Of a stretch of DNA of 64,000 bases, positions 10,768 through 62,017 are shown one piece after another. Made by a program: the position numbers and the translations under genes. Numbering within the stretch: position 1 is the stretch's first letter; the number at the start of each line of letters is the position of its first letter. The DNA is from a virus. The DNA lies in IMG/VR virus record IMGVR_UViG_3300025012_000053, positions 1 to 64,000 of that record; one strand, given 5' to 3'. A model generated the notes under the pieces. It was not told the DNA's origin and ran no database searches. It worked only from the letters and a program-made list of their open reading frames with translations.

Positions 10768-10770
10768 ATC

Positions 10771-13176: not shown

Positions 13177-13187
13177 TAGAGTAAATA

Positions 13188-15110
13188 TTAATATTTCCTG
13201 TATCTGCGTTTCCCTAATAATGCTGTAGTTTTTCTTCTGAGATTACCTCCAAACCTGCCAGTAAAACTATTTCTCGGATTAAGATCTTCTTCATTCTCAT
13301 CAAGATTGAATAGATCAAATTTTGAGTCTTCAGGAGTAACAAATGAACTTTTGTCTTTATTTCCCCAATATGCATCAATCATTTGTTTTTTTAGACCTAT
13401 CATCTGATTCTGATAATCTTCCTGTGCAGTCATCATCTTGTCATCCCTTGATTTCTGCCCTATCTGAGTAAATAGTTGATTCGTATTAGCATCTATTGCA
13501 GTCTTTCTTGCTCCCCTGTTAGCCGCGTTAGCTTCTGCCTCCTGCATTCCTACCTGGGTGTTAAACATACTTAACCTGGATCTGTTTTGTGAATCCATCA
13601 TTGAGGCCCTGTTCTGTGTTTCTGCATTCTGTGCCTGTATCTGACCTGTATAACTACCTATTGCTTCGGCTTCTGATGCTGCAATGTTAGACAGGTTATT
13701 CATGTATCCTCTTGGGTTTAATCTGCGTAATCGTTCCCGGGAAGATCCGAATGATCTCTTTATGTTCTGTATTCCTGCTTCAGAACTTATAGGAGCCACT
13801 TGTGTCGGTGTAAATGATGCCTGTTGATAGTCTACCTTCTCAGGTCTGCGTAACAGGTTTGTTGCCATTCCTATTCCACTACCAATGATAGGTGCGTTAC
13901 CAGGATCATCAAGAAATGATTTAAGGTTTAATCCATCTTTACCATATCCTATTGCTCCAAAATATCTTCGTGTAATATCATAGATCTGGCTTAATTCATC
14001 ACTCATTTCTTCAAATGGAAGTTGTGATACTTTTCTTGTTTCATCATTCCACTGATCACCGGTACGTTTTTCGAAACGCTTATCGCGCTTCTTTACAACA
14101 TCAGCAACACTTTTGCCAATATCTACCCTTTTAAATGGTACATTACCTCCGTATCTTTTCATAATAGCGGGTGTTACTTTAATCTTATCTGAGTGAACGA
14201 TATCTCCTGTCCGGGATTCTCCATCCTCTACCTGTACTCCAATAGGAAGGTTAATACCTCCCTGGTTATGCTGTTCTCCAATATAATCTGTTCTTTTTGA
14301 TAGTTTTTTAAGGTTCATTCCACCAGCAGCAACTACATTATCATACTGCTGAACTCCTCTTGATACTGCAGGTTTATATACTTCTGATATCTCATTCTCA
14401 TCACTGGCTGGTTGACCAATAGATCCAAGAGCCCCTGCAGCACCTGAAGTCATAAGACTTGCTCCTATGGGCGCTCCGATACCTGTTGCTGTCATGGCTG
14501 CTCCTACACCTATCTTGGCAAGGTTCCCTGCATTATCCTTGAGCCATCCACCTACTGAATACTGAGGTACATCTGTATCTGCCATAAAAGGATTATAGTT
14601 GTCAGGATCAAAACCTTGTTTCTTAAGAAGTTTTGCTGTCTTCTTTTTTTCTCCAAGATAGTAACCGGAAAAATTCTTATTAATGTTTGCAGCTTGTGGT
14701 ATACTTTCCATGTTCCAGAGGCGATATCCTTCAGGTCCTCCCATTGTCCAGTCGGTACCTTTATCCTTACTCATCATGCTTGCTCTTTGAGATGCCGGCA
14801 TCCTGAGCCATACCGATTCAGGAATACTATCTCTGCCAGATCCCATCAATCCTTTTTTTGCAAGAACAGGATATATTTCTTTAGCTGTATGTGATCTCCA
14901 TAGGTTATTATTAACTACATCTTTTGGCAGATCTCCAAGTGGACCGCCCAATTCTAATTTTTTAAAATGTCTTTTAGCCATCCTGGCAAAATTAGCCATC
15001 TGTCTTACATGAGGATCTTTAGATCTCAATGCTTCTGCAGTTGTTTTACCGGTTCTCTTTTTATACGCTGTAAAACGACCTTTATGTGATGCCTTGATTT
15101 TTATTGCCAT
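13188..15110 (-). CDS. Cargo protein 1-like internal virion protein, 640 aa
   Basis: Directly after the muzzle gene. Basic N-terminal module IKIKASHKGRFTAY...RQMANFARMA, a Gly/Ala hydrophobic segment (IGVGAAMTATGIGAPIGASL), the motif HNQGGI...VEDGE...DIVHSD and a Q/N/A-rich coiled-coil end. Confidence 0.65.
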   Translation of the reverse strand: MAIKIKASHKGRFTAYKKRTGKTTAEALRSKDPHVRQMANFARMAKRHFKKLELGGPLGDLPKDVVNNNLWRSHTAKEIYPVLAKKGLMGSGRDSIPESVWLRMPASQRASMMSKDKGTDWTMGGPEGYRLWNMESIPQAANINKNFSGYYLGEKKKTAKLLKKQGFDPDNYNPFMADTDVPQYSVGGWLKDNAGNLAKIGVGAAMTATGIGAPIGASLMTSGAAGALGSIGQPASDENEISEVYKPAVSRGVQQYDNVVAAGGMNLKKLSKRTDYIGEQHNQGGINLPIGVQVEDGESRTGDIVHSDKIKVTPAIMKRYGGNVPFKRVDIGKSVADVVKKRDKRFEKRTGDQWNDETRKVSQLPFEEMSDELSQIYDITRRYFGAIGYGKDGLNLKSFLDDPGNAPIIGSGIGMATNLLRRPEKVDYQQASFTPTQVAPISSEAGIQNIKRSFGSSRERLRRLNPRGYMNNLSNIAASEAEAIGSYTGQIQAQNAETQNRASMMDSQNRSRLSMFNTQVGMQEAEANAANRGARKTAIDANTNQLFTQIGQKSRDDKMMTAQEDYQNQMIGLKKQMIDAYWGNKDKSSFVTPEDSKFDLFNLDENEEDLNPRNSFTGRFGGNLRRKTTALLGKRRYRKY

Positions 15111-15115
15111 GGCTT

Positions 15116-15406
15116 TTATTTTTGAGTGACTTTATTAGCAATCGATTCAGCCGGTACCATATACAAAGATACAAGATCGTGAAGAACTATCGTATGATGA
15201 TTAGTATCATTTACAAAAGTAAACTTTACTTTGATATAGGTATCTCTTAATCTTGCATTATCACCAGCATTTCTTCCTGCATCAATCCTCCATGTTCTCA
15301 GTAGTCTCCTACAGTTGGAAGAATTAATAGGAATAACACCAGTATCCTGATAATCATTTCGTACCTGTATCTTATCTATCGTTCTTGTATGTATAGGAAT
15401 TCCCAT
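15116..15406 (-). CDS. Detached C-terminal segment of the muzzle (tail stabilization) protein, 96 aa
   Basis: TIDKIQVRNDYQDTG...RRLLRTWRI...RLRDTYIKVKFTF...IVLHD matches my recollection of crAss muzzle C-termini; it has its own ATG 2 nt after the stop of the 2291-aa ORF. Confidence 0.65.
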   Translation of the reverse strand: MGIPIHTRTIDKIQVRNDYQDTGVIPINSSNCRRLLRTWRIDAGRNAGDNARLRDTYIKVKFTFVNDTNHHTIVLHDLVSLYMVPAESIANKVTQK

Positions 15407-15408
15407 GA

Positions 15409-18400
15409 TTATAATGTTTTACATAGTCGAATATTAAAGCAGTCAACAATATCCCTTGCTTCATATGTTATTGCAGCATATGAATGATAGAATGTTATTG
15501 TCATATCAGAATCAGAGCACCAGTATGATCCTTTTAATCCGAGCTCAGAGAATGTATTATATCCGACAAAAACACTTCCTCCGGGTAATGCTGTATATCC
15601 ACTTGAATTTGTTGCTCCGGTATTAGGACTTGTCCAATGAGCAGTACCAACTTCTTTCATTGCTCCTCCGGCTAATGACGATCCACCAAGAGCAGCAACA
15701 AGAGCCATCCAGTCTGCTATAGTAGGAACTCTCCATCCTGTCTCCAGGGCACCACTACGTGTAAGATAAGCTATGTTATTCGCGCTTTGAGCTGCATAAC
15801 CATTATAGTAACGTCCATATGTAGATAACTGATCTGTAATAGGAGTAAAGTCAGCTATATAAGGAATGATAGCATTCTGAAGTGTATTATAACTAAGAGC
15901 TGATGCTATTATTGATCCTCCATTGACAAACTTGGTTCCTTTAAAGTTTTGTATTATCCATCTTCTGCCGGCAACATCAATAGTATCATACTCATATCCT
16001 GCATTATCTGTAAGCGGTCCTGTTATTGGTGGTGTTGCTGTAGTAAATGTGAGATTTTCTCCATAGCCAACAAGTGCTACACTATTAACGGCATATGCTC
16101 TTATATAGTGTGTTGTCCCATTGGGAAGATTATCAATAAGTTTATAGAATGATCCTATACCACTACCTGAAGAATAGTTTTGTACCGTTGGATCTGGAGA
16201 TGTACCTACGCAGAATCCACGTCCTGTAATTGTAAGTCCACTGCCTCCTGCATATATTACATTACCATTAGCTCCTGCTTCAGTATATCCTATACCTGTT
16301 ATTGAATCAGTTGTAACTGTAGGTGCTACATTCTCATTCATTACTATAGTTATAGGAGCGCCATATCCATCACCCTTGCTATTTGTGGCATAGGCTGCTG
16401 CATAATATGTTTCTCCAGGGGTAAGACTACTTCGGGTTACACTATATGATCCTGTTCCTGAATCACCATCATCATATTTAGGATTATTATATGCGACAGG
16501 ATCCGTACCAAAGAAGAATCCTTTTTCTGTAATTGCCACTCCTCCATCAGATGTTGCATTACCATTAAGGACAACACTTACTGTAGTAAGACCGGAATAT
16601 GCATTCGTTACAACAGTGGGCACATAATAAGCTATTGTTGTAAAGCTTATCTCATTACTATAAGTTATATCTACAGAGTTTTGCGCGTATGCCCTAACAT
16701 AGTACGTGATACCATCACTACCACTATTCATTATATGTGAAAATTCTGTAATACAATCATTATAACTATCAGCTACAGTAGGAGAGCCAGATGTGTTCCA
16801 ACAGAAACCGAATCTTGTTATGGCAGCACCACCTGTACTTAATAATATAGCACTTAACGTAGCACCAATTGCGGTTATTGATGTTGCATTATATTGACTT
16901 AATACAGGAGCCGTCTGGGTTTTTGAACTGAATATCTTCTCATCTCCATATGATGTTCCTGCACCATTAGTTGCATAAGCACGAACATAATATAATGTTC
17001 CAGGACTAAGAGAAGTAATAGAACTTACAAAAGTGCCTATTCCAGAACCATCGATAGTCTTTGAATCACTTGTTGTAGGTCCTGAACTTGTCTTCCAACA
17101 AACACCCCTGGCAGTAACAGGATCGCCACCATCACTTGTGATCGTTCCACCACATGTAGCCGTAGTATAATCTATAGATGTTACATCAGCAGTTGACACG
17201 TTAGGGGGAGATACATTTATTGTCGTGAATGACTTTCTCACTCCATATGCTGTACCTACACTATTCATTGCATAGGCCATAACATGATATCCCCTTCCTG
17301 ATAATAATCCTGTAAGAGCTATATCAAAAGATCCAAGACCCGTTCCAGTGTCTGCTACTTTTACTCCATCCGCAACAGGATCAGAATAGTCATCTATACA
17401 GTAATATATTCCTCGTTCATATACTGTAGATCCATTCCCGGAAAGAACATTTCCTCCTGCAGTAGCTGTTGATGATCCAAAGACTGTTATCTCATTTGTC
17501 TCAACAGAAGCTGTAGTATATACTGTAGTTGTCCTGGCCCAGTTGGTTCCATATGATACACCTTCACTATTGACTGCATAGGCTCTCATGTAATATGTAG
17601 TACCCTGAGAAAGCCCGGTAATATCAACACTGAATGTTCCTTCTCCTGTACCTGAATCAATATGATCTCCTGCTATCGTAGGATTAGTAGATGTTCCATA
17701 AGCAATACCTCTTTGTGTTACTCCCCCAAGAGCATTGCCATCATGAGTAACATTCCCTCCTGCTCTTATAGACACATGACTCAATACAGTAGGTTCCGTT
17801 GTCAATACCGTAGCATAATCAAGATCGAGAGTAGAAAATCCTCTTGATGTTGCACTATAACCTGTACCTTTCTTATTTATCGCATAAGCCCTCACATAAT
17901 ACTGAGTGTTGTCAGTAAGACCTTCCATATCTGCTGAAAACGAATCGGATCCAGTTCCAGCTGTAACAATATCATCAGCTGTTGTAGGTGGATCAACTAA
18001 ACTGTAACACAATCCTTTCTCAGTGATTTCCGCACCACCATCATTTGTTATTACACCACCACTTCTTGCAGATGATATTCCTATCTGATCAACAGCATTT
18101 GTAGTAAGAGTAGGAACGAATAGATTTGTTGTATTAAAACTTTTCTCATCACTATAAACGGGTGTTGCACTAAGACTATTTATCGCGAATGCTCTCACGT
18201 AATATTGAGTTGTATCTGTTAACCCGGTAATTGTATATTCAACAACACCTTCAACTCCTGTAAGTATTGTATAGTTATCATCGAGTATAGTAGGATTAGG
18301 AGATGTAGACCAACACAATCCGCATGTCAATGGACTGTCTCCTCCGTCTTCAACCAGGGTCCATCCTGTAGTGGCTTCCTCTTCTCCTATATTACTTATA

Positions 18401-32206: not shown

Positions 32207-32500
32207 TTAAGTATTATATTTTTCCAGTTGTCTGTAAGAATCATCAATGATATCCTGAATGTCCTGTACTGTAAGAACATTATAATATTCTGTTATTGAT
32301 ACATCAGATATTACTTCATACCTATAAAGAATCTCGATATACTTTGAGATCATTATATTACGTTCATTAAGTTCTTTCAGGAATATAAAGTTACCTGTAT
32401 GATATGCAAAGCTTTTAGAAAGATCCAATCCAAGCCTTGAATGTAATAGTTGTATCGTTGCGATATCACTATTTAATTGTGTTTGACTGAATGCTTGCAT
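32207..32500 (-). CDS. Hypothetical protein, 97 aa
   Basis: Co-oriented helical ORF overlapping the end of the glycosyltransferase gene. Confidence 0.5.
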   Translation of the reverse strand: MQAFSQTQLNSDIATIQLLHSRLGLDLSKSFAYHTGNFIFLKELNERNIMISKYIEILYRYEVISDVSITEYYNVLTVQDIQDIIDDSYRQLEKYNT

Positions 32501-34841
32501 TTATCAGTAAATTATCTTCAACTAATTTATCAAGAATATACTTAATATCAATATCTTCTGTTATCCAGCGGATCAATAAATCTCTTTCTGCTATAGGGTT
32601 ATGATGACTTGACGGACGAACATTTTTCTTCTGAAAATAATGACTCTGTTCAGATTGAAAAAATGTAAAGCCGGAGATGATTATCTCCTTGAATCCCATC
32701 CATCTTGCCAGGGCAATAGCCATTATCCCTACAGTAGGAAATGCTTTTATCTCTTCTGATACATATCTAAACACTTCCGAAAACTCTTCATTATCTCCAT
32801 ACATCCAGACAACATTACCCATCTTAATAAGTTTCTCTCCATTATCCAGCCAGAACTCATGCATCTTCTTAGCATCAGTATACTTCTGATACATTGTTTC
32901 TGATATAGGAAGAATTCCAAGAATAGGATAATCAACTTTATGGTCCGGAATAATTTCATGATAGAGACTGGATATATTAAGATCGATCCTGGATCCTATT
33001 TCCGGAAACCCAAGTTTAAAGTTATTACATCTCATTACAAAAGAATCATCAATCTCTTTTGATAGGTCTGTTTTGAATGGTCCATTACCAATAACTGAAC
33101 AAGATGTTTTACCACTGATGATCTTCTGTACTTCCCTTCTGATTATTCTATCATATTCCAATGGTTTACTTATAATATTCATCTTGTCTTTAAATCTTCT
33201 GGATGCCTGGTTATGTATTATAACAGGCTTATCACATTGCAAGTATTTATTGTCTGCAATATGAATATACTCTTTTGGAAGATCAACGATCTTAACCCCC
33301 TGTAATCCTTCCATTACTGCCTGAAAGTTTATAGCATCGGGATTATTGTTTTCAGAATTAAGAACTGTCCATCTGTTAATCACTTCCCGGGAAACAGTAT
33401 TGTTTTTAAAGAACATGGTACCTGTCATCTTCTCATTCCACTGCTTAAGATAATGAAATGATATATCGCAATCGACAGTATAGAAGAATTCCGGCATTGC
33501 AAGTATCTCAGCATCGGCATCGATCCAGATAACATCCTTCTTATACTTGTCCATTACAGATTTAAGGACCTGTGGTTTCATCTGAGTATTCTTCTCCCAG
33601 GATCCCTGATGACGAAGACCAACTATCTCATATGGAAGACCAAACTTATCAAGACTTGCTTTAAGGACTTTTACCTCTTCTTCATATGGAGTATCTGCAG
33701 TAAACATACTTACATAGACAATATCATTACGTCCCGTGATCTTGCCTTCAAGCTTTTGGTTTATGAACTTAAGATTTTCTTCATTCTGTTTTCGAATATG
33801 ATCAGCCACACCAGATTTCTCTTTTACTATTAGTGCATGCTTCTGTGCTGTTTCATATTCACCCATCCAGTAATAACAGATCCCAAGTTCAAAGTCTGCC
33901 AAGTATGATTTATTTGTAGCATGAATAAATAATTTATCATTTACAGGATAATCCATCCTTAACACTTCTTCCTGAAGTAACCGGGCCATATGATATTTCT
34001 TCCGTTCTCTATAGACAAGGCCAAGCAGATATAATGCCTCAAATCTTGAAGGACGGAATGAATAAGCTTCAATAAGCTGAAGAATGGCACTATCCATACT
34101 TTTAAGATGATATTGCATTACAGCTATCTGAAATAAGGAATAATATACTTCTTCCGGCCAGCCACCTCGTTTTGCTCTTTCCTCGTAATACTTTATGGCT
34201 TTATCATATTCCTTCATGTTGGCATATGTCTGTGCCAGGTAAAAGTAATTACGTGTATCGGATGGATTATCAATGATTGCCTTTTCAAGAAGATCGCGAT
34301 CCCTGGTTAACTTCTCACTTCGTGTACCACCATCAGCATGATGTATTACTGCAAGAGATCTTAACTCAGGACTCTCCCCGCAATTCTCTCCATTAATATA
34401 TTCATGTGTTACTCCAATATATCTGAATTTCTTTCTACCTGATATAAGTAAGATCTGTGCAAAATCAAGATCTCCCATGTATCTTAAATGATACCAGTCA
34501 TATTTCAATTGTGATTTGTCAAATAGATCTGATACTTTATATTCAAAGTCAGCATCGGCAAGAAGAAGATAATCTGCTTTATCATAGGCAAGAGCCATGA
34601 GCTCTGATCTGTTATGTCCGAAGTTAACCCAGGGTCTTGCATGAAGTTCTCCTTTTATCCCGGCATCTTCCATTACATCAACGATTATCTTCTGTGTTTC
34701 ATCAACAGATCCTGTATCAATAATAACATAGTAATCAATAAATGATTTACAGCTATCTATCATTCTTGCAATTACTTTCGCTTCATTACGAACTATTGCA
34801 CAAAGGCATATTGTTTTTTTATCATTCATTTCATTTGTCAT
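32469..34841 (-). CDS. Multidomain glycosyltransferase: GT2 + TPR + second GT-A (DxD) domain + GT29-like (sialyltransferase-motif) domain
   Basis: ICLCAIVRNE..IDTGSVD..NFGHNRS..LADAD..GVTHEY (GT2); YFYLAQTY...ALYLLG TPRs; SWEKNTQMKP..WIDADA..IIHNQASRR; CSVIGNGP..IDDSFVMRCNNF..GSRID, PTVGIMAI..ISGFTFF, HYF, HNPIAE. Confidence 0.85.
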   Translation of the reverse strand: MTNEMNDKKTICLCAIVRNEAKVIARMIDSCKSFIDYYVIIDTGSVDETQKIIVDVMEDAGIKGELHARPWVNFGHNRSELMALAYDKADYLLLADADFEYKVSDLFDKSQLKYDWYHLRYMGDLDFAQILLISGRKKFRYIGVTHEYINGENCGESPELRSLAVIHHADGGTRSEKLTRDRDLLEKAIIDNPSDTRNYFYLAQTYANMKEYDKAIKYYEERAKRGGWPEEVYYSLFQIAVMQYHLKSMDSAILQLIEAYSFRPSRFEALYLLGLVYRERKKYHMARLLQEEVLRMDYPVNDKLFIHATNKSYLADFELGICYYWMGEYETAQKHALIVKEKSGVADHIRKQNEENLKFINQKLEGKITGRNDIVYVSMFTADTPYEEEVKVLKASLDKFGLPYEIVGLRHQGSWEKNTQMKPQVLKSVMDKYKKDVIWIDADAEILAMPEFFYTVDCDISFHYLKQWNEKMTGTMFFKNNTVSREVINRWTVLNSENNNPDAINFQAVMEGLQGVKIVDLPKEYIHIADNKYLQCDKPVIIHNQASRRFKDKMNIISKPLEYDRIIRREVQKIISGKTSCSVIGNGPFKTDLSKEIDDSFVMRCNNFKLGFPEIGSRIDLNISSLYHEIIPDHKVDYPILGILPISETMYQKYTDAKKMHEFWLDNGEKLIKMGNVVWMYGDNEEFSEVFRYVSEEIKAFPTVGIMAIALARWMGFKEIIISGFTFFQSEQSHYFQKKNVRPSSHHNPIAERDLLIRWITEDIDIKYILDKLVEDNLLINASIQSNTIK

Positions 34842-34902
34842 CTTCCTGTCTCTTTAATTAATACTTTAGTATCTCCATAAAACCAAAGGTAGATTATTTA
34901 TT

Positions 34903-35874
34903 TTAATTTGTAGTTACAGATATTCCTTTTGCAATCAAACTATTTTTAGCAGTTATTCCTGCACCTGTTGGCGCAGCATTAGTTCCACCTTCAAGATAAA
35001 TAAATCCCATTGTTTTAGTGGAAGCATCTATTTCTATAAGTATGTTATTTATATCGGCTGCAAGTATAATATCATTTTCTCGTGCATCAATTTGTATTGA
35101 CAGCGATAAATCCCATTCGCTATGTGCTTCAAGCGTGGCTAATCCTGCATCATAAACATTTATTCGATAAAAATCAACCCATGCAGCAAATGTAGTTATT
35201 GCACTTATCGGACAACTCGTAAGTTCTATACTCTGAATATCTACCCATGCTGCATAAGTACCTCCAATATTGACTAAACCATAATTATCATGTAAGTTTA
35301 TGTTGATTATTTTTATCCATTCAGGTCTAAGAACAATTGCTGTAAGTAAATTTTCACTTGCTCCAAGAACTTCCAATAACACCCATTCTGCATGAGTAGC
35401 AAGTGTTATTAACTGGTTGATATCAAGGGTCAGGCTTACTAAATTAACCCATGTGGCATAAGTATTGAATGATGTCAAAGCATTATCCCCTGCTGCAAAG
35501 ATCATCAGATTTACCCATTCAGGATAGGTTTCAAATGATGTAAGTAAGTTCCCCTGAACATTTATCTGTTCAATATTAATAATTGTACTTGGAATGAGGA
35601 TATCGGTTATATCCTGATTAGGTGCAGAAATATGCGTGATCACAGTAGCACCGGATATAATTACAGTCCCTCCTCCTATATAAAAATGATCTACAGTAAC
35701 ATTACCCATTCCTAATAATGTTACTGTCTCTAAAATAGAACCATCCGTCCAATCAATAATAACATTTCCTAATCCTTGTAAGTCCATACTAAATGTACCA
35801 ACAATAGATGTTTCAATAATAATTTTTATACCTCGAAATCTTGTCAATGATCTGAATGTACAACCTTTTCTCAT
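34903..35874 (-). CDS. Leucine-rich-repeat-like protein (~22-aa repeats with a conserved Trp)
   Basis: Repeats such as NLLTSFETYPEWVNLMIFAAGD / NALTSFNTYATWVNLVSLTLDI / NQLITLATHAEWVLLEVLGASE; N-terminal IDWTDG; C-terminal GTNAAPTG..LIAKG..VTTN. Confidence 0.7.
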   Translation of the reverse strand: MRKGCTFRSLTRFRGIKIIIETSIVGTFSMDLQGLGNVIIDWTDGSILETVTLLGMGNVTVDHFYIGGGTVIISGATVITHISAPNQDITDILIPSTIINIEQINVQGNLLTSFETYPEWVNLMIFAAGDNALTSFNTYATWVNLVSLTLDINQLITLATHAEWVLLEVLGASENLLTAIVLRPEWIKIININLHDNYGLVNIGGTYAAWVDIQSIELTSCPISAITTFAAWVDFYRINVYDAGLATLEAHSEWDLSLSIQIDARENDIILAADINNILIEIDASTKTMGFIYLEGGTNAAPTGAGITAKNSLIAKGISVTTN

Positions 35875-35876
35875 AA

Positions 35877-37727
35877 CTATTGTGTATATGGTCCACCTTT
35901 ATTAAACCAGAAAGCACCACTCTCATCATAAAGGAATGCTAACAGATCCCTGTCATTAGGACCTGTATCAAAAGCAAATCCTGCCTCAGTATAATATGTT
36001 CCTGTAAGAGACAAGACATGATCTCCTGTATTATCCTGGATTATCTTTAAATTACCCTGATCTCCACTTACTACATTTGATATTATAAGAGTACAATCCT
36101 GAACAAGAGTAAGCTTTGCATTATATCCCTGCGTTACATCCCAATGAATTCCTGCTGTAGCATTATCAAGAATGATAAATGTCTTTGGCGCTTCTGCAGG
36201 TCCTGTAGGACCAGTACTACCAACTCCTGTTGCACCTGTAGGACCTATTGATCCTGTAACACCAGTTGGTCCTATTGCTCCCTGTGTGGCAAAAACTACA
36301 AGATCAACCCTCGATACTCCCACAACACCTGTACCGGAATATCTCCTCATCCTTCCCTTAACATTATATGTTCCGGCAACAAGTGATGATGATCTTTTAA
36401 CAACAGGGATAACGATATAAGTAGGAGTGGTAGTAAGATAGGCAAATACCTCATCGGTATCAACACCATTGATCTGAAGAGTTAATCCTATTACTGAAGC
36501 ACCACCGGAAACAAGTTCACATTGACAATTCATAATAGCCATTATCTCAACAGTAGATTCAAGAGTTATTGATGTTGTCACTCCTGTAATATCTATGAGT
36601 GTTGCTGAAGTGGTAGTTCTTAATGTCTCCATCTCGACAAATGAACTTGGGATCTTTCCCGCTACAGCATCAGCCCCTGCAGCACCAGTAGGTCCGGTTG
36701 CTCCTACAGCACCTGTCGCTCCATCTGCACCTGTGACACCCGCACCTGTGGGCCCTACTGGACCAGTGATTGAAGGTCCTGTTGGTCCAATGGATCCGGT
36801 TACACCATCAGCACCTGTAGGACCTGTTATACTTGACCCTGTCGGTCCTGTAGCTCCGGTAGGTCCAGCAACAGTAGAATCTGCACCGGTTGGTCCGGTT
36901 GATCCTGTAGGTCCTGCAGGACCAGTAGCACCAGGTGAATATGCTCCACCATAAAGATTTATAATCCAGTCTGAATACGTACCTGATCCTGTATGGTTAA
37001 CAGAAACCATAGATAACTCTCCTGAAGCTGCTGTATAATTTACTACAGTAGCACGGAATAGATTATTAATATCATAAGCAACAACAATATCCTGTCCTAA
37101 TGTAAATGCTCTTCCTGTAGAACATATCATATCTATTCCTGTAGGATGAGTTGTTGGAAGTGTTTCTGTTCCAGTAGATGTAGATGCAAATCTATCGGCA
37201 TATCCTGTTGGACCTATTGATCCTATTGGTCCTGAAGGTCCTGTTGGTCCTGCCACTGTTGAGTCAGTGCCCGTTGGCCCTGCATTACCTGTTAATCCTA
37301 TTGGACCAGTTGCTCCTGTAGAACCAGTTGGACCTGTATTCCCATCTGCACCTGTCGGACCAGTATCTCCTGGTATTATTGATGCGGCTCCTGTCGGACC
37401 TGTAGCACCAGTAGGTCCATCATCTCCTGTATTACCATCAGATCCTGTTACTCCTATAGGTCCTGTTGGTCCTGTAGAACCGGTTGCACCGTCTGCACCT
37501 ATATCACCTGTTGGTCCTGATGGACCTGTAGGTCCAGTACCAGAAGATCCTGTTGGTCCAGTCGGACCTGTGGCTCCTATTCCTATAGGTCCGGTAGCAC
37601 CGGCCACGCTAATAGTTTCTCCTGTAAGAAGAATAATATTTTTCTTATCATCCCTGGCCGGTTCAATAAATATATTACCACCATCGAGTTGTGGAGAAGG
37701 ACCTAAGAATTGTGCACCGGTTGACAT
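35877..37727 (-). CDS. Collagen-like (Gly-X-Thr) fibre protein
   Basis: Three GPT/GAT triplet tracts separated by globular beta domains; very Thr-rich. Confidence 0.88.
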
Positions 37728-37843: not shown

Positions 37844-38494
37844 CTAATTGTGTATCAAGGTTTCACCACCATATCTACGAGCATTACCAGCCTTGAACCA
37901 ATCTATATAAGTAAGCCCGATGACTGTCGTTCCATATTGACGTAATGTAGTAGTTCCTGTCGTACTGCCACTACTTGTACTACAATCAACCGCAGAAGCC
38001 TGTAAAACTCCATTTAAGTAAACATCAACGACCCCAGCAGCTTGCATAGTCCATACAAAAGTCCACTCTTGCCAAGTATCCTGTTGAACTAAATCAGCAC
38101 CTACCTCGTTCCATGCTGCACCATCATAAACATATAGTCCATCAGAAGCCCAACGAATACCAAGATAGTAACTTGTAGCATAACAAAGAAGTTCAAAATA
38201 ATCTGAATTAGCGAGTGTTCCTAAAGTGTCATGGTATAGTTTAATTGAAATAATATTCGGGTTTGTTTGATATGAACCTATGTCAAGAGTACGGGAAGCT
38301 AAGTTACCAGCACCAGCAGCAACAACATCCATTTTAAAACAACTCTTGGAATCAAAGAAAATCTGTGAGCTCACACCTGTTCCTGTATCGCCATCTGTTG
38401 TCCAATCGACAATATCAGCGCAATCCTCATCCTTGATTGTACCACTTGAGAATGTTAATTCGTCTAAATACTTATTTTCGGTTATTATTGACAT
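37844..38494 (-). CDS. Concanavalin/LamG-like beta-sandwich protein
   Basis: DTWQEWTFVW...VDVYLNGVL...YIDWFK. Confidence 0.55.
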   Translation of the reverse strand: MSIITENKYLDELTFSSGTIKDEDCADIVDWTTDGDTGTGVSSQIFFDSKSCFKMDVVAAGAGNLASRTLDIGSYQTNPNIISIKLYHDTLGTLANSDYFELLCYATSYYLGIRWASDGLYVYDGAAWNEVGADLVQQDTWQEWTFVWTMQAAGVVDVYLNGVLQASAVDCSTSSGSTTGTTTLRQYGTTVIGLTYIDWFKAGNARRYGGETLIHN

Positions 38495-39686: not shown

Positions 39687-39722
39687 AAAAAAGGGGAAGA
39701 GAAAATATCTTCCGCTTCCCCC
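39687..39722 (-). terminator. Rho-independent terminator downstream of the auxiliary capsid gene
   Basis: Minus strand reads GGGGAAG-(15 nt)-CTTCCCC followed by TTTTTT. Confidence 0.75.
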
Positions 39723-39750: not shown

Positions 39751-41058
39751 TTATACGCCTATTGAACTTGTCTGTGTAGTATAAGCCTGAAGTATATCAG
39801 AGATAGTATCAGGTGGTTCTCCATTGGAGAATCCTGTTTCAAGGGCAACAAGAAGTTGTTTCAGTCTCCTTGGCGCTCCACCAATACCTCCGGTAGTAAC
39901 ATCAGTATAATAACTGACCGACATTTGATCATACATCTTTCCTGATGTAGCAAGGGCCCTGGCAGCTGTCCACATGAAGTCTCCGGCATAGGCATTACCA
40001 TCATTACCAAGGAGTCCCCATTCCAGTTCAGCTATCTGTTCATAATTACCCTGCCCAAGAGTCATAGCAGTCGTATAGGTAATAGGTGTTGTTCCAAATG
40101 AACTTGATGTATCAAGCCCTATCAGAAATGATACTTTTGAGAATGGAGTTTTCCCAACAGAGAATGCCCTGGCAACACCAGAGAGTTTAATACCAAGATC
40201 AGCAGAAGCCATCTTGGCAGCGGTAAGAACCGTGCCTGCAGCCTTCCCTGCAGCTACTGCCGAGAAACTTTCTTCCTCAATAGGTCTGTCAACCTTGAAC
40301 ACGGTAGTTGAGGTAAGCTCCTCGACCCTGTATATACCATCAGTGACAAGACACCCGGTTACTGCCTGTGCATCAGAAAAACGAACATAATCACCTACAG
40401 CCAGGTCCACGTTGGTATTATAATCAGTATTAGTACCGCATGTTACATATTTTTCTCCTTTAACAAAGGTTACTGTTCCAGCAAAAGCAGCTGTAGCTGC
40501 ATAAGCAACATCAGAAATAAGTTCAGCCTGGATAGGAACAACAGCCTGCCTGCGAAGAGTACGACTCAACTGCTGAACAAGACCAAGAGCAACCTCAAGT
40601 TGTGTAGCCGAAGCATCACTCTTGTAAGCTGAATTGATTATCATTTGTTGTCCGATACCTGTATAATCCTGTTCTTTCAGAGAAAGTCTTACGACATACA
40701 GTTTGCTGTTTGCTACTTCAATCTCACCTGAGGTACCATTATACCCGATATAGGATACCTGTTCTGCGGCTGCTACATCGACCTGTGTTTTGAACGCGAG
40801 GATATTGGCCTGTTTGATAAGATCACTCTGGATCAGATCGGTACCATTACGGAGAATGAGTTTAATTCCAGATTCTGCAACAATGTCATCAGTAAGCACT
40901 GATGTTGCGCTAAGAACCATGTTGTGGGCATTACATACGGCGATCTCACCATCAGTCAGTCCTGCATAGGTGGATATTACGCCGTTAATGGCAGTAGTTG
41001 GAGTTACTGCTCCAAGGTCCTTGCCGATAAACAGTTGCATTACATCATTTTGTGTCAT
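39751..41058 (-). CDS. Auxiliary capsid (decoration) protein
   Basis: AAAEQVSYIGYNG, GQGNYEQIAELEW, YDQMSVSY pattern; position after the ring genes and followed by a terminator. Confidence 0.6.
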   Translation of the reverse strand: MTQNDVMQLFIGKDLGAVTPTTAINGVISTYAGLTDGEIAVCNAHNMVLSATSVLTDDIVAESGIKLILRNGTDLIQSDLIKQANILAFKTQVDVAAAEQVSYIGYNGTSGEIEVANSKLYVVRLSLKEQDYTGIGQQMIINSAYKSDASATQLEVALGLVQQLSRTLRRQAVVPIQAELISDVAYAATAAFAGTVTFVKGEKYVTCGTNTDYNTNVDLAVGDYVRFSDAQAVTGCLVTDGIYRVEELTSTTVFKVDRPIEEESFSAVAAGKAAGTVLTAAKMASADLGIKLSGVARAFSVGKTPFSKVSFLIGLDTSSSFGTTPITYTTAMTLGQGNYEQIAELEWGLLGNDGNAYAGDFMWTAARALATSGKMYDQMSVSYYTDVTTGGIGGAPRRLKQLLVALETGFSNGEPPDTISDILQAYTTQTSSIGV

Positions 41059-45541: not shown

Positions 45542-47026
45542 TTAATTCAATACGCTTGGTTTAATGGTAGCGCACCTGGTAGGATCGTTAACCAGACAAC
45601 CGCCAACGAATGCACGGTGGAATGTGTAGCCATCTTCAGGAGAAGACATGAATCTCCGTGGTCCCTGTGCCTGGAACGGATCTCTCAAACCGGGTTGATA
45701 ACCCATGAAATCTTCCATTCCTTCATTATATACAGGACGGATATTATCCTCTCCACCGGTACGTCCAACATTAAGGATCTGGTATACATAACTCTGTGCA
45801 ACACCTTTTCCGGATGGATGCATGATCTTATTACGTTCCCTGTCATCAAATGTTGAATCAACCATGACACCAAGTTGTGTTCCATCAGGACCCCAGTATT
45901 CTACATAGTTCTCATGATATCCCCAGCCATTACCGGATTTATATTTCTCATCTCCGGAATAGAAAGGTGTATAGAGAGTAGTATAGTTCTTGATTGCCTT
46001 ATGGAAGTTATATGCTCCCCACTTACCGGTACGCATGATCACTTTTCTTGTCTGACCATAACCACCTTTAGTATCATCGGTAAGATCCATGATAGCTTCG
46101 GTAAGCCATTCGATATCAACATCAAAATCATTGTAATAAAGAACATTCGATGCTTCAATCTGCTGTTCGAGGCCGGCACCCTGTTCGATCTTGAACCCGC
46201 TGTAACCAATTTGCTTGAAAGTACCATCGTCTGCACGGTTGGTAGTTGCAAAGTTGATCAGCTTATCCTTCATATCCTGGAACTGTGTTTCAAATTCCCA
46301 GTCTGCATACTGAGTCCATGTAGTCATGATTTTCTCTTTGCCATTCGAATCCATTGCCTTCCATGAGAAAGCTACCGGCCTTGAGATCATATTACCTGGT
46401 CTGGTGTCCTGCATCCTGATCATCGAGAAGGTGTTCTTCATCGAGAAAGGACTGGTATAGTTCGGGGTTCCACCTTTTATTGATAGTGTCTTTTCAACAA
46501 TGGACCATTCTTTTGAAAACCTTTTTCCGGCTACGAGTTCATCGTAAGGAATATAGAGATCAGTGTCTCCTGTGAAAAGTTCGCATTCATAATCCCACAT
46601 GGTCCCGTTTGGAACCGGTATAGCTACAATCCTGATCGGGTATACAGAATTCTTTTCACCAACTATCAGGTTAGTGTCTGAGAAATACTGTTCCGGGAAT
46701 GTAAGAGTAAACCTTGCACTGCTACGGCCAACCTGTGAGGTTGCAGAAATAGCACTGCCATTTACTGTACAAGCAATCAAAGGCACGTTCTTTTTTGAAG
46801 AACCCTGTAGCCTCCAACGAAAATCGTCATCTGTCTTTAAGGTCAGAGGACTGAATTTCTGAAGAACAAGACCGAAGTTTGTTCCCCTGTTGGCGCGATA
46901 CAGCATGTTGATCATCTGGCTCGTGTCCTGTGGTTTGTTTTGATAGATCGCACCCAAGTGGTTTTTGGTTGTTAAACCAGACCAGTCTTTGGGTTCATAC
47001 TCCTGAAGTGGTGATACTCGTTGCAT
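45542..47026 (-). CDS. Major capsid protein (crAss-type)
   Basis: 494 aa; WSGLTTKNHLGA, DDDFRWRLQG, GAGLEQQI, YQPGLRDPF, DPTRC; portal-scaffold-MCP order. Confidence 0.9.
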   Translation of the reverse strand: MQRVSPLQEYEPKDWSGLTTKNHLGAIYQNKPQDTSQMINMLYRANRGTNFGLVLQKFSPLTLKTDDDFRWRLQGSSKKNVPLIACTVNGSAISATSQVGRSSARFTLTFPEQYFSDTNLIVGEKNSVYPIRIVAIPVPNGTMWDYECELFTGDTDLYIPYDELVAGKRFSKEWSIVEKTLSIKGGTPNYTSPFSMKNTFSMIRMQDTRPGNMISRPVAFSWKAMDSNGKEKIMTTWTQYADWEFETQFQDMKDKLINFATTNRADDGTFKQIGYSGFKIEQGAGLEQQIEASNVLYYNDFDVDIEWLTEAIMDLTDDTKGGYGQTRKVIMRTGKWGAYNFHKAIKNYTTLYTPFYSGDEKYKSGNGWGYHENYVEYWGPDGTQLGVMVDSTFDDRERNKIMHPSGKGVAQSYVYQILNVGRTGGEDNIRPVYNEGMEDFMGYQPGLRDPFQAQGPRRFMSSPEDGYTFHRAFVGGCLVNDPTRCATIKPSVLN

Positions 47027-48481: not shown

Positions 48482-50935
48482 TTATTTTTTTATAGTTGCA
48501 GGTTTTGGTCTTGATCTCGCGATTTTCTCAGCACTCTGAACCTGCATTCGCACGATATTTCTTTGTTCTTTAAGTTTCTCATTGAACTGTCGGATCTTCT
48601 CTTTCATCTCTTCTTTACGCTGCGCGAGCTGCAGGCGAAGCTTTTCAAGTTCAAACTCGCGTTTTTCTGATTCATCATCCGTGATCTTACCGAGATCCTT
48701 ATCTTCTCCAAGCTTAGCGTATTCAACTTCTATCTGCATCTCTTTCATGTAGATCTCAGCATCAAGCCGGTTATTCTCAATTCTTTCTGCCTGTTCAAGT
48801 TTCATGAGTTCAAGTTCATTCAATGCCTGTTGAATTCTTTCCTGGCTTTCAAGTTGTTCTTTACGTACATCATCTTCTCTTTGATTGCGTTGTTCTTCAC
48901 TATCTTCAAGTTTACGGATCATACCAGCGACACTTGTATCACGATATATTGTAAATAGATCTTTAAATGTAGCCTTGTCATTCTGAAGAGCTGCAAGAGA
49001 TAATTGTTTTATCGCTGCTATGAGTTCTGCATCATTCTGTCCATCGGATATATAATAGCCATAATCCGTTTCAGCAAACTTCCTTCCGTCAACTTCAAAG
49101 AGATGTGTTATCATACCATCATCAACATACTGAAGTTTTTTAATATTCTCTCCTGTTGCATTCTTCCATGCATACTTGGCTGTCTCAAGAAGACATTCAA
49201 GTACACGAAGTTTTGTATTATCGTGTACCCTAAACCATTCTTCAGTAATATGTGAGCTCTGGGTAACGGATCTTTCTACTCCTCCATATGTTTCCCTGTT
49301 ATCAATCTGTCCTTCGCGTTGAGGAGTAATACCGGCTACTTCACCAAGTTCATTTTTTACATATTGTGCCAGTTTAAGATTAGCAAGAATAACTTCTGAA
49401 CTATTGAGATTAAGAACATTGGAATTCCTTTGTTTTATCGTAGACAACAATTTACCCTGGGCAATACCTTTTTTACCTTCCTTGAACGAATCAGTGACCA
49501 TGTATCCATTGGCCTCTGCATACATCATTACAAGTTCCTCATCCCATCCATCAGGAATCTCTGCCAGGTCCAGTTCTGCAATAACTCCTTTATTACGTGC
49601 CGATGCAAGTTCCGTCCTGCGCATGTATACATTATAAAGGTATTTATATGGTTTAACACGGTCCATAAGCGATACACCTGTGCCTCCACCTATCGAATAT
49701 ATTGTTCCTATATATGGCGGAAGACATATTGACGGATTGGAAAACTTACTTCCTATCCTGGGAAGAGACTCAATACGCTTATACATATCAACTCCTATCT
49801 TATGCCCCTGCCACCATTCATTTATCCATCTCCAATCGATCTTCCAGCCAAGATTCTTAAACTGATCGATAGGGAAGTTCTCATCAACGATAGTCTCCTG
49901 TTCATCTCCTTTAGGATCATAATATGTCAATCTCCCTATCTTACGTCTGCTCTTCCATACAATCTTCGCAACGAAGATATTTCCTTCTGAATCAAACTGT
50001 CCACCAAAGTTACGGGCATCAGGACCATCAACAGTAATAAGTTGTGTGGCACCAAGACCACGAACATTAGGTTCATCTCTGTCAACGGGTCCACTGAATA
50101 CTATGTTTGATGCAAATCTATTTTCCCGGGCTCCTATTTCCAAGGTGTCAATCTCATCAGAAGTAAGGACATCCCAATAATCATCAATAACCTTCCCGAT
50201 AGGAACATAACCGCTGTCAATGATTATCTCTGAATCCTCTATCTTATAACTATCTCCTCCTCCAAATGTTGATATATTAAGTACATTCCGTTTACTGACA
50301 ACCGGTTCTCCATGCAGTATTGGCACCTCATATATTTCCTCGGCACCAACAAGAACATCATAAAAAGCATCTGAGAATATGTTCTTAAGCTTTTGAGTGT
50401 ACCAGAAATAATCAAGGATCCGTTGGCCCATCACTTCACCGTAATCCTGGTATTCATAATTATGATAATGTTGTAATTGTTTTAACCTTCGGGCAACCTG
50501 TTCCTCATTATATCCACCACTGGTTATCTCCTGGGAAATAAGACCAAAGACCTGTTCCCTCATCATGAACTCTTTCTCACTGACAACATCCGGGTTAACA
50601 CTTCGTAATCGCCATTCAAACCTGCGCTTCCCCTCTTCTCCTTTTAGTACATTGAACTTTGTCAGTTCGATAGGATAGTTCTGGATCTTTGCAGGAAAGT
50701 TAACTCCTTTTATTCCCATAGGATTAAATGCCTTCTCTATGTCACTCTCATCAATGATCCCATTTATAAGATCATAGTTGATCTGTTTTGCAACCCGGGA
50801 TTTACGAATCTTACTTGTATCGCCATTGGTTATTGTCAGGCCAGCCTCAATACATTCCTTACCCCATTCTTCTGTTTTTTCACGAAGTAGTTTTTTCTGA
50901 GAAGGAAATTGGTAAATAGTCATTGTAGTTGCCAT
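48482..50935 (-). CDS. Portal protein
   Basis: 817 aa after TerL; FPAKIQNYPI...LKGEEGKR, WINEWWQG, SLMDRVKPYKYLYN, GITPQREGQI, SSHITE. Confidence 0.92.
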   Translation of the reverse strand: MATTMTIYQFPSQKKLLREKTEEWGKECIEAGLTITNGDTSKIRKSRVAKQINYDLINGIIDESDIEKAFNPMGIKGVNFPAKIQNYPIELTKFNVLKGEEGKRRFEWRLRSVNPDVVSEKEFMMREQVFGLISQEITSGGYNEEQVARRLKQLQHYHNYEYQDYGEVMGQRILDYFWYTQKLKNIFSDAFYDVLVGAEEIYEVPILHGEPVVSKRNVLNISTFGGGDSYKIEDSEIIIDSGYVPIGKVIDDYWDVLTSDEIDTLEIGARENRFASNIVFSGPVDRDEPNVRGLGATQLITVDGPDARNFGGQFDSEGNIFVAKIVWKSRRKIGRLTYYDPKGDEQETIVDENFPIDQFKNLGWKIDWRWINEWWQGHKIGVDMYKRIESLPRIGSKFSNPSICLPPYIGTIYSIGGGTGVSLMDRVKPYKYLYNVYMRRTELASARNKGVIAELDLAEIPDGWDEELVMMYAEANGYMVTDSFKEGKKGIAQGKLLSTIKQRNSNVLNLNSSEVILANLKLAQYVKNELGEVAGITPQREGQIDNRETYGGVERSVTQSSHITEEWFRVHDNTKLRVLECLLETAKYAWKNATGENIKKLQYVDDGMITHLFEVDGRKFAETDYGYYISDGQNDAELIAAIKQLSLAALQNDKATFKDLFTIYRDTSVAGMIRKLEDSEEQRNQREDDVRKEQLESQERIQQALNELELMKLEQAERIENNRLDAEIYMKEMQIEVEYAKLGEDKDLGKITDDESEKREFELEKLRLQLAQRKEEMKEKIRQFNEKLKEQRNIVRMQVQSAEKIARSRPKPATIKK

Positions 50936-50946
50936 TGCAGTATGGT

Positions 50947-53073
50947 TTAATTTTTATTACGATTTTCTAACTGAAGTCTTTTATTGATTGTTGAGAATGG
51001 ATTCGATTCCTGTTTCAGTTTTTCCTGGAACATCTCCATCCTTTTAAAGAAAGGGCTTAAAGCATCTTGTGGTTTCTTATCCATGTCATCAGGGTGAATA
51101 TGCTGCATGTCCTCTTTAAGTATCATAAGCATCTGTAAAGCATCAACCCTATCAAAGTTACCCTTTGGATTCCAATATATTAACTCCTGTAATAAAGGAA
51201 TTGAACGGATTCTATGGAGATTTAATATTTCACTACCAGGTTCTATAGATGTTGTCAGCCAGATAAGTATTTGTTCTCTTCCCCATTTCTGTATAGGAGC
51301 CGTTCCTGGCGTTCCTTTACCTCTGTTTAACAGAGACTTATCGAATATCTTATCAACGATTATCTTGGGAGTATCACATAGTAAATGTGCTGAGTGTCTG
51401 TTATTTAAATATGTAAATAAACCTTTCCAGTTATTTTCATAGTTACAAATAGCTCTGTAATAGATTAGTAACCTTCTTACTCCTTCATAATATTCATTTG
51501 CAGTGGAGGGACGACCGGTATATTCTGCAACTATCCTCTCCGTAATCCGGTTCATTATGAATGTACTACCAAGAGAATCAGTAGTACTCTTATCATGATC
51601 ATAAGTATCATTACCGGCAATATATATACCCCATGGAATAACACCATCTATAATAACCGGTTGTTCGTATATTATTATTGCACCCTGCAGATTGCGTTTA
51701 TCAAGTTCCGGGAACCTTCTTATAGGATGAAGATCGGCACTTGGTTTCCATTCTATCTTTTGTGTCTCTTCATTTATCTCAAGAAAACCAACATATTCCT
51801 GTTCTTCATATTTTTCAGGATTAGAAGTAAGATGATTAAGATGATGTTTAAGATCATTGATAGGAAAGATAGTCCCACCAATACGCATAACAGCTTCCTG
51901 GGGTGTACGTGGTTCTTCTGCAATGAATCTTATAATGGTTTCAGGGTTCTTTGTTGCTTTAATAATCTTATTCCTTGAATGATCAACCATCTCCCTGGCA
52001 ATATCTTTTAATGAATTTCCATCCTTATCCATTGCTCCTTCAAGATTCTGTTCAATAGAAACAAAATGACCACACTTACTATTCAAAGATCCTTCATCCC
52101 ATATATTAGGAACCTGATGAATATTATATGCATCACCCTGGTAGAATAACTGTTCAAGTCCCATAAAATCAGAGTCTTCCGTACCCCCGGTCCCAAAACT
52201 TACGGCTAAACCATGAGTAAGACGACCCTGTTGCATGCTTTTTAACGAGATGTTCCATGCCTGAAGAAGATTAGGATTCTTACCCGATTCCTCATAGATC
52301 AAAAGTTTACCACCCTTCCCCCTTACTTTTTGATAATCATTCTTCATTGAGATACCCATTATTTCACTCTTGAATCCTTTCTCAATCTTAAGACCTTTCT
52401 GATCTACTATATAAGATGATCTCTTATACATTGTAGTATCATGCTTCTGTCTTCTTTTTCCCCAGGGTGTATGTTGTTCGATATGATCCATCATCTCCCA
52501 TGCTTTTGAGAGAAGACCATCTTCAATAAGGAATGCTTTATCATCTGCAAATACAAAACTCTTGGATCCTGGAATAAGATAATAGTTCCTATCGCACATT
52601 GAACCAGCCTTGTAACTATATCCTCTACGTCTTGATTTAATTACAACGCCATGTTCACCATTTGCTTCTGCATCATCAAGATACCAGAAATACTGATAAT
52701 CACCATCCCAGAAATCAGGAAGAGTAAAAACACGATCTGCTTTTGCCTGTTGGTAAAGTTTAGCGACTGCATCCTGATCCGTTTCATCATCAGGAATATC
52801 AATTTCTATAGCTTTATAAATAGGACTGTAATTAAGGTAGAAATAAAAATAGCCGGGGATCTTATCCCGGCCTATATCATATCCATATACTGATCGTCTT
52901 GCTTCTTCTTCCCAGAATTTATAATACCTGGATGACGGATGATCATTTACAGGATAGTTAGTATATCTTTCAAACTCGTTAAAATGTAAAGCGCTCTCGC
53001 GCCATACCTCAGTATTATAGTGTAATGTATTCTTAAAATAACCTGTTTCTATAATTGCCTTGTTGTCATCCAT
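50947..53073 (-). CDS. terL: Terminase large subunit
   Basis: KSRRRGYSYK (crAss Walker A variant), YEESGK, FGTGG, YIAGNDTYD, GNFDRVDAL. Confidence 0.93.
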   Translation of the reverse strand: MDDNKAIIETGYFKNTLHYNTEVWRESALHFNEFERYTNYPVNDHPSSRYYKFWEEEARRSVYGYDIGRDKIPGYFYFYLNYSPIYKAIEIDIPDDETDQDAVAKLYQQAKADRVFTLPDFWDGDYQYFWYLDDAEANGEHGVVIKSRRRGYSYKAGSMCDRNYYLIPGSKSFVFADDKAFLIEDGLLSKAWEMMDHIEQHTPWGKRRQKHDTTMYKRSSYIVDQKGLKIEKGFKSEIMGISMKNDYQKVRGKGGKLLIYEESGKNPNLLQAWNISLKSMQQGRLTHGLAVSFGTGGTEDSDFMGLEQLFYQGDAYNIHQVPNIWDEGSLNSKCGHFVSIEQNLEGAMDKDGNSLKDIAREMVDHSRNKIIKATKNPETIIRFIAEEPRTPQEAVMRIGGTIFPINDLKHHLNHLTSNPEKYEEQEYVGFLEINEETQKIEWKPSADLHPIRRFPELDKRNLQGAIIIYEQPVIIDGVIPWGIYIAGNDTYDHDKSTTDSLGSTFIMNRITERIVAEYTGRPSTANEYYEGVRRLLIYYRAICNYENNWKGLFTYLNNRHSAHLLCDTPKIIVDKIFDKSLLNRGKGTPGTAPIQKWGREQILIWLTTSIEPGSEILNLHRIRSIPLLQELIYWNPKGNFDRVDALQMLMILKEDMQHIHPDDMDKKPQDALSPFFKRMEMFQEKLKQESNPFSTINKRLQLENRNKN

Positions 53074-57868: not shown

Positions 57869-58494
57869 AATATATGAGTTTTAAGTTTAAAAAATCCATT
57901 AGATTCTTTATTCGAGTTCCAGTTCTCTTTTATCCCTTTCATACTATATCCGGACCATACTACTTCAATAAGATGACTCTGGAATGTATTACTCCACCAT
58001 GTAATATCTTCTCTTATTATATGTGTTGAATCAAGTTCGTATGCTGGTTCGTTATATGTCATGCCATTATTAGACAGTGGTACTATAACGAAGATATTAT
58101 CTGAACAAGATCGGATCTCTTTTATTATATCATTGATCTTATCATAACCAATATGCTCAAGAACATCTTTACAGATGATCCAGTTCCATCTTTTCTTTTT
58201 CCAGAATTCTCCGCTATAAATATATTCATCTATATCAACAGGTACATTCTCAAGAGCATATTCGCTTATATCATATCCATAGGCATTAAAACCAAGTAAT
58301 CGGAAAGCCTTAACAAGATATCCCATTGCGCAACCAAAATCCAAGATGGTATCTTCATCAAGTATTACAAGTTCATTTGATAGTCTGTATGCCAATGGTA
58401 TTGTTAATTCAGGCATCCACCGGTACTGAGAATAAAGACTCTTTCCCGTTTCTAATCCCCTGATGTAATAATCCTCATCGTACTTTTCCATCAT
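57865..58494 (-). CDS. Class I SAM-dependent methyltransferase
   Basis: ILDFGCAMG, GYDIS, KDVLEHI. Confidence 0.88.
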   Translation of the reverse strand: MMEKYDEDYYIRGLETGKSLYSQYRWMPELTIPLAYRLSNELVILDEDTILDFGCAMGYLVKAFRLLGFNAYGYDISEYALENVPVDIDEYIYSGEFWKKKRWNWIICKDVLEHIGYDKINDIIKEIRSCSDNIFVIVPLSNNGMTYNEPAYELDSTHIIREDITWWSNTFQSHLIEVVWSGYSMKGIKENWNSNKESNGFFKLKTHIL

Positions 58495-61799: not shown

Positions 61800-62017
61800 A
61801 TCTTAAACCTGTCAAGTTTCTCCTGCAGTTCCTTTATCCTATCCTTAAGCTGGCCAATAACCATTATAAGTACAAATATTGTCATCCCGGATACAAGTAA
61901 CCAGTGACCAATTCTTGGTATACCAAGGAACCAAAGTAACCAGGCAAGAATGGTTGTTAGCCAGATAATAGTTGAAGTCATATTTTCTTTTAAATAACGT
62001 AAAATAATGTTTGTCAT
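61796..62017 (-). CDS. Small 2-TM membrane protein
   Basis: Two hydrophobic segments; translationally coupled on both sides. Confidence 0.55.
   Translation of the reverse strand: MTNIILRYLKENMTSTIIWLTTILAWLLWFLGIPRIGHWLLVSGMTIFVLIMVIGQLKDRIKELQEKLDRFKI

Follow-up and report, generated by a model that had tools for sequence, protein, structure and literature searches.

We report that a 64,000-nt stretch of viral DNA (positions 1 to 64,000 of IMG/VR record IMGVR_UViG_3300025012_000053; referred to below as the window) carries, within the virion module of a crAss-like phage, a gene encoding a 790-amino acid (aa) fusion of three glycosyltransferase (GT) domains, preceded two genes upstream by the gene of a threonine-rich, collagen-like fibre protein. 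The enzyme probably O-glycosylates threonine residues of this fibre, which would constitute a crAss-like counterpart of the SgtA/BclA3 system; we estimate the probability of this reading, whose substrate is inferred, at about 0.7. A first-pass annotation of the window had already recognized a GT2-tetratricopeptide repeat (TPR)-GT-A-GT29-like fusion embedded among structural genes close to a collagen gene, and had noted that GT2-TPR enzymes act on collagen-like proteins of spores. Pfam, Foldseek, VIA-align and hhalign agree on this domain composition, the coordinates of the open reading frames (ORFs) place the genes as described, and the precedent is that of SgtA and BclA3 (PMC7157674).

The predicted protein comprises four parts: a GT2 domain, a TPR region, a GT-A domain and a GT29/GT42-type domain (Table 1). 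The Pfam scan of its sequence yielded no match to a membrane-spanning family or domain, and the enzyme is therefore taken to be soluble. The GT2 assignment (PF00535, residues 16–104, 7.7e-7) lies above the family cut-off, and several TPR families match residues 180–300, directly after this domain. Two GT2 motifs, D42-T-G-S-x-D47 and D96-x-D98, show no variation among 32 homologues, and the presence of the DxD motif makes this domain probably metal-dependent. The best matches of the N-terminal module among PDB sequences are Listeria GmaR and SunS, both of which are protein or peptide glycosyltransferases.

SgtA of Clostridioides difficile is a 358-aa GT2-TPR protein encoded beside bclA3, and it transfers β-O-N-acetylglucosamine onto threonines of GPT repeats (PMC7157674). 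Its sequence, retrieved by means of a primer printed in the same paper, is collinear with residues 10–344 of the phage protein (BLASTP 1e-15, 23% identity). In hhalign, comparison of the profile of the phage enzyme family with SgtA gave 99.3% and an E-value of 1.3e-20 over 320 columns, covering SgtA residues 3–340. Three features of an SgtA-type enzyme are present, namely a GT2 domain with nucleotide-binding and DxD motifs, a TPR region following it and linkage to a collagen gene. DNA glycosylation was considered as an alternative function and rejected, since the enzyme has a TPR region and is homologous to glycosyltransferases acting on proteins.

The structural model of the middle domain (pLDDT 88.9, built from 22 relatives) has a GT-A fold. 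Its top match in Foldseek is domain D1 of the A064R protein of chlorovirus PBCV-1 (2p6w, E-value 6.7e-9, TM 0.65), followed by GT8, UGGT, LH3 and GT6 enzymes. Both the fold and the DxD motif are those of A064R-D1/PF03407-type proteins; the domain encoded in the window scores 17.7 bits against the PF03407 cut-off of 22 and so falls short of membership in that family, which matches weakly in 7 of 22 members of the phage enzyme family (E ≤ 0.01). An Atlas score of 0.97 was obtained for the middle domain against stand-alone phage proteins of the PF03407 type. A specific relationship to the human collagen glucosyltransferase or to LH3 was rejected, since these matches reflect the shared GT-A fold.

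The C-terminal domain, when searched alone, matches PF00777 (Glyco_transf_29; E-value 1e-5, 25.6 bits against a cut-off of 23), a family not listed in the Pfam scan of the full-length protein. The same family was matched in 22 of 24 relatives, at best with 7.8e-12. The model (pLDDT 83.7) has the sialyltransferase (GT-A variant 2) fold: all its top Foldseek matches are sialyltransferases (2wml, 2.7e-4; 1ro8, 6e-4), and the eight best VIA-align matches (Z 8.3–11.3) are sialyltransferases and MptE-like/SteA/Maf kin, including Cst-I (Z 11.3), ST6GalNAc2 (10.7), ST3Gal-I (10.6) and Maf (8.3). When a profile of the C-terminal family was compared with PDB sequences, Cst-II was matched at 2.7e-5, and the alignment brings the GNGPS and LSG motifs into register; stretches resembling the L and S sialyl motifs (GNGP and S-G-F) correspond in the two proteins. 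Residues invariant in the 32 homologues are G585-N-G-P588, R604-C-N606, P702..G705, G724-F725, H734, H746-H747 and E752; H734, H746/H747 and E752 may correspond to sialyl motifs III and VS. An MptE-like pterin kinase was rejected as an interpretation, because that match is weak and outscored by PF00777, the two families sharing one fold superfamily. GT29 enzymes are known mostly from eukaryotes.

About 50 full-length homologues of the 790-aa enzyme, sharing 40–74% identity with it, were found in metagenomes, and the catalytic motif sets of all three transferase domains are invariant in the 32 homologues examined (likewise 40–74% identical). Some variants of approximately 1000 aa carry an additional C-terminal methyltransferase. 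In a variant of approximately 1500 aa (L096:1459-5967 and L099:1644-6239), a single ORF encodes a GT2-TPR module, an RmlD-like sugar-nucleotide reductase, a second GT2 domain, a GT-A domain and a GT29-like domain. Such additions are as expected for a diversifying glycan assembly line and parallel PBCV-1 A064R.

It is very unlikely that the SgtA-like module alone acts on the fibre while the two domains fused to it lack activity or serve an unrelated acceptor. This would be in line with the fact that the enzymes extending the BclA3 glycan were never found (PMC7157674), with the lack of CMP-sugar genes in the phage and with the occurrence of the middle and C-terminal domains also as stand-alone phage proteins. 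It is opposed by the invariance of the DxD and sialyl-motif-like residues across the homologues, and by the order of the fused domains, which is the same in all variants.

The predicted acceptor is a 616-aa protein whose collagen-like character, Thr-rich and built of GPT and GAT triplets according to the first-pass annotation, was upheld by a match to PF01391 (E-value 3.8e-19). It contains 70 G-X-Y triplets in nine runs; Thr takes position Y in 40 triplets, Pro takes position X in 27, and GPT occurs 20 times. The collagen runs are located at residues 51–177, 266–353 and 483–503. Residues 1–258, which form an N-terminal anchor and a first globular domain, are common to the fibres of related loci L001, L002, L005, L006, L007 and L084, and the distal half is variable and lacks conservation among related phages. 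This is the usual pattern of virion fibres with exchangeable tips.

The fibre contains 45 copies of the putative acceptor motif G-x-T-[GA], where 5 would be expected (z = 19.6), and among the late proteins of this phage the enrichment is confined to the fibre. This bears on the alternative that other virion or phage proteins are glycosylated (the capsid, the auxiliary capsid protein or the leucine-rich repeat (LRR) neighbour), as in mycobacteriophages and chloroviruses, with the collagen being at most one of the targets. The best fold match of the middle domain is indeed a capsid protein glycosyltransferase, and the gene lies near the head genes, including one encoding an auxiliary capsid protein (AuxCP)-like product. 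Nevertheless, no late protein other than the fibre has the motif above expectation, and it is a collagen-like gene rather than a capsid gene that is conserved as the neighbour in different lineages, which makes this alternative improbable.

The association of the transferase with collagen genes, proposed for testing in the first-pass annotation, was recovered both within the phage lineage and across independent lineages. Within the lineage, the comparison covered loci that encode a full-length homologue and extend at least 4 kb upstream of it. In all of them except L082, i.e. in L001-L007, L083-L086, L088 and L089, a collagen gene is located zero to two genes upstream, on the same strand. The fibres of this lineage vary in length between 436 and 1717 aa, and different genes lie between fibre and transferase; the major capsid proteins (MCPs) are 80–88% identical. 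In contig L166, from a close relative (MCP 87% identical), the fibre slot is occupied by non-collagen proteins of 479 and 931 aa (10417-15476); the next gene does not encode a transferase, and the contig ends there. More distant relatives lacking the enzyme were sought using the AuxCP-like and 254-aa anchor proteins, which yielded only the same approximately nine contigs, and the comparison of presence and absence is therefore that of L166.

For the wider comparison, GT2-TPR homologues on viral and metagenome contigs were clustered at 70% identity, and 51 of the clusters had 6 kb or more of flanking sequence. A collagen-like ORF flanks the transferase in 23 of these independent clusters, or in 25 if two that overlap it by 4 bp are included. 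It lies within 700 bp in 13 clusters (15 with the overlapping two), on either side and on either strand. The control set of 80 random viral loci (672 kb) contained two weak collagen-like ORFs (2/80). In the linked collagens, Thr occupies position Y in about 50% of the triplets. The collagen-linked clusters include giant-virus contigs and one contig of 388 kb. On the giant-virus metagenome contigs L031 (9971-16912) and L028, GT2-TPR genes stand beside large collagen-like ORFs, with a spacing of 34 bp in L031.

Phage glycosyltransferases encoded near fibre genes are usually read as modifiers of the host surface (PMC7029224, PMC10202952). The enzyme could accordingly remodel a host glycan (O-antigen, capsule or glycoprotein), leading to superinfection exclusion or blocking re-adsorption of the progeny, and its position next to the fibre would then denote a host-recognition island. 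The window does contain a separate putative sugar-tailoring operon (55349-62763), and GT29/GT42-type enzymes normally cap cell-surface glycans. However, membrane-spanning families are unmatched in the enzyme, the TPR region and the homology over the full length of SgtA point to a protein acceptor, and the family adjoins collagen genes in unrelated viruses and bacteria, often at a distance of a few dozen bases. Moreover, a relative of 88% completeness keeps the enzyme and not the sugar operon. crAss-like phages are not known to be lysogens, which also counts against this explanation. We consider it unlikely.

Several observations weigh against glycosylation of the fibre. About half of the GT2-TPR loci have no collagen nearby, and these include L008, the closest relative confined to the N-terminal module (56% identity), the record of which is a small fragment. 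Within the lineage there is a sole exception, L082, where no collagen was seen in 4 kb of upstream sequence and the contig ends within the first ORF. The linkage within the lineage could be plain synteny among close kin, and the control with random loci leaves a possible common preference of transferases and collagens for fibre or host-recognition islands. Furthermore, a search of the phage genome for a CMP-sugar synthetase (CTP_transf_3) and NeuB showed that neither is encoded, so a CMP (cytidine monophosphate)-activated nonulosonic acid donor would have to come from the host.

If the fibre is the substrate, the following course may be proposed. Late in infection, the TPR region would hold the G-X-Thr repeats of the fibre in the cytoplasm, and the GT2 domain would place the first sugar on Thr, an N-acetylhexosamine by analogy with SgtA. 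The fused GT-A domain would then add a second sugar and the GT29-like domain a further residue, which, by analogy with its family, may be an acidic sugar that the host provides in CMP-activated form. By the time of its assembly, the fibre would bear dozens of short glycans. Candidate benefits are stability of the triple helix without hydroxyproline, shielding from proteases, and effects on adhesion or host range. The three-step order and the acidic cap, which we infer from the fusion and from family resemblance, are proposed tentatively. More doubtful is the fullest form of the model, in which a multi-sugar O-glycan ending in a sialic acid-like residue on dozens of fibre threonines would turn the fibre into a densely glycosylated, acidic, mucin-like appendage.

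The record from which the window derives is a single sequence of 94.4 kb with an estimated completeness of 97%, and all genes of the window are located on the minus strand. Homologous large terminase subunit (TerL), portal and MCP genes, a crAss-like gene order and giant virion proteins place the phage in Crassvirales. The MCP is 35–37% identical to those of Bacteroides phage DAC15, Cellulophaga phage phi14:2 and uncultured phage cr126_1. Searches of GenBank phages with the region (megablast) and with the enzyme (tblastn) revealed no close relative, and in the latter search no named crAss-like phage was found to carry the enzyme.

Table 1. Features of the fibre-transferase region and of the head module (window coordinates; all on the minus strand).
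Feature	Coordinates	Strand	Remarks
97-aa gene	32207-32500	-	overlaps the transferase stop by 32 nt; position kept in relatives
Three-transferase fusion gene	32469-34841	-	790 aa
GT29/GT42-type sialyltransferase-like domain	32487-33119	-	residues ~575-785
Middle GT-A domain	33177-33734	-	residues ~370-555; invariant D441-x-D443
SgtA-like module	33807-34820	-	GT2, residues ~8-175; TPR, ~180-345
LRR-like repeat protein	34903-35874	-	323 aa; between fibre and transferase genes
Collagen-like virion fibre gene	35877-37727	-	616 aa; PF01391
216-aa protein	37844-38494	-	just upstream of fibre; Laminin_G_3 2.8e-4, under cut-off; weak ConA-like lectin match
AuxCP-like gene	39751-41058	-	weak match; upstream of fibre gene, downstream of head genes
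MCP	45542-47026	-	crAss-type PHROG match, 4e-93
Portal	48482-50935	-	crAss-type PHROG match, 7e-102
TerL	50947-53073	-	crAss-type PHROG match, 1e-121

The single gene separating the collagen gene from the transferase is spaced from them by 2 nt and 61 nt, respectively. Its product has repeats of approximately 23 residues and a weak match to LRR_4 (7e-4). No homologue of it was found in related loci, and it is probably a distal binding or adaptor module in a variable slot. At the equivalent position of another locus (L003:8575-9927) there is a gene with a Fib_succ_major (Fibrobacter succinogenes major) domain (7e-47), unrelated to the LRR-like protein of the window. The 216-aa protein encoded just upstream of the fibre may belong to the fibre complex. 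Between the AuxCP-like and collagen genes there are two small genes and a conserved gene of 254 aa, and a terminator-like hairpin with a T-run occupies the gap after the AuxCP-like gene (39695-39713, minus strand). Scanning of the region for promoters and terminators was uninformative. The product of the 97-aa gene is 57% identical to its counterpart in L082, and family searches with it gave no match.

Downstream of the transferase region there are giant virion ORFs, one of 2291 aa and one exceeding 3589 aa. Giant ORFs run off both the contig start (window 1-10767, minus strand) and the contig end (L172:6134-10414, minus strand) in the same direction; these two would form one ORF of approximately 5000 aa if the record were circular.

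The genes at the other end of the window may form the sugar-tailoring operon mentioned above. A nucleotide-sugar dehydrogenase of the UDP-Glc/ManNAc type (55349-57868, minus strand) has its coding sequence split by an intein that contains Hint and LAGLIDADG domains. It is accompanied by genes for a methyltransferase, a radical S-adenosylmethionine (SAM) protein, a B12-binding radical SAM protein and two unassigned products (57865-62763, minus strand), located upstream of a GroES-like gene and TerL. A role of this operon in feeding fibre glycosylation is unsupported, the B12 radical SAM gene being absent from the 88%-complete relative that keeps the enzyme.

Transferases encoded near phage fibres have usually been read as modifiers of DNA or of the host surface (PMC7029224, PMC10202952). 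The present case points to a third role, in which the phage would glycosylate its own collagen-like fibre, and a bacterial member of the enzyme family has been proven biochemically to act on the kind of repeat that this fibre carries. If this is true, many fibres of environmental phages would be glycoproteins, with consequences for host recognition, virion stability, antigenicity and structure prediction. The 790-aa fusion also supplies a candidate for the steps by which glycans of BclA-type spore proteins are extended, the enzymes for which were never found, and would serve as a compact means of producing glycosylated collagen-like peptides. Its C-terminal part places a GT29-type domain in phages. 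Should the sialic acid-like cap be confirmed, it would be the first phage-encoded protein sialylation of the GT29 type, and a general, unrecognized route by which phages tune fibre stability and binding to host or mucus. In literature searches, neither glycosylated collagen fibres nor GT29-type domains were found to have been described for phages, in agreement with the earlier statement that such an assembly line is not known to have been described for crAss-like phages.

Several known systems resemble the one proposed here. Mycobacteriophages also use virus-encoded enzymes to glycosylate their own structural proteins; their targets are capsid and tail-tube proteins, not collagen repeats. The C-terminal domain shares its fold with the GT29/GT42 sialyltransferases ST3Gal-I, ST6GalNAc2 and Cst-I/II and with Maf (Z 8–11), and its GNGP and S-G-F motifs align with those of Cst-II, but it is only 14–20% identical to these enzymes, lies inside a fusion and belongs to a phage without a CMP-sugar pathway. 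Mimivirus L230 is virus-encoded and glycosylates the virus's own collagen-like proteins (PMC9614988); unlike the phage enzyme, it glucosylates hydroxylysine and belongs to another enzyme family.

The multidomain enzymes A064R and A111/114R of PBCV-1 build the glycans of a capsid protein (PMC9614988, PMC7826918). As in the proposed phage system, three transferase domains are combined in a single viral polypeptide directed at a virion protein. A064R in addition provides, in D1, the best fold match of the phage middle domain and, in D3, a terminal methyltransferase such as occurs in variants of the phage family. Sequence identity is nevertheless about 11%, and the chlorovirus glycans are N-linked and attached to the capsid protein of a eukaryotic virus. 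The chlorovirus enzymes lack the TPR region, the SgtA-like initiating module and the GT29-like domain, all of which are present in the phage enzyme.

The closest parallel is offered by SgtA and BclA3. Both systems comprise a GT2-TPR module of about 350 residues, collinear in sequence and encoded beside a GPT/GAT-rich collagen gene, with Thr as the acceptor in the case of SgtA, and the triplet composition of BclA3 is much like that of the phage fibre. The phage enzyme differs from SgtA in being 23–25% identical, phage-encoded, situated in a virion module and fused to two more transferase domains; what is new here is the occurrence in a crAss-like phage and the presence of a GT29-like domain in the fusion.

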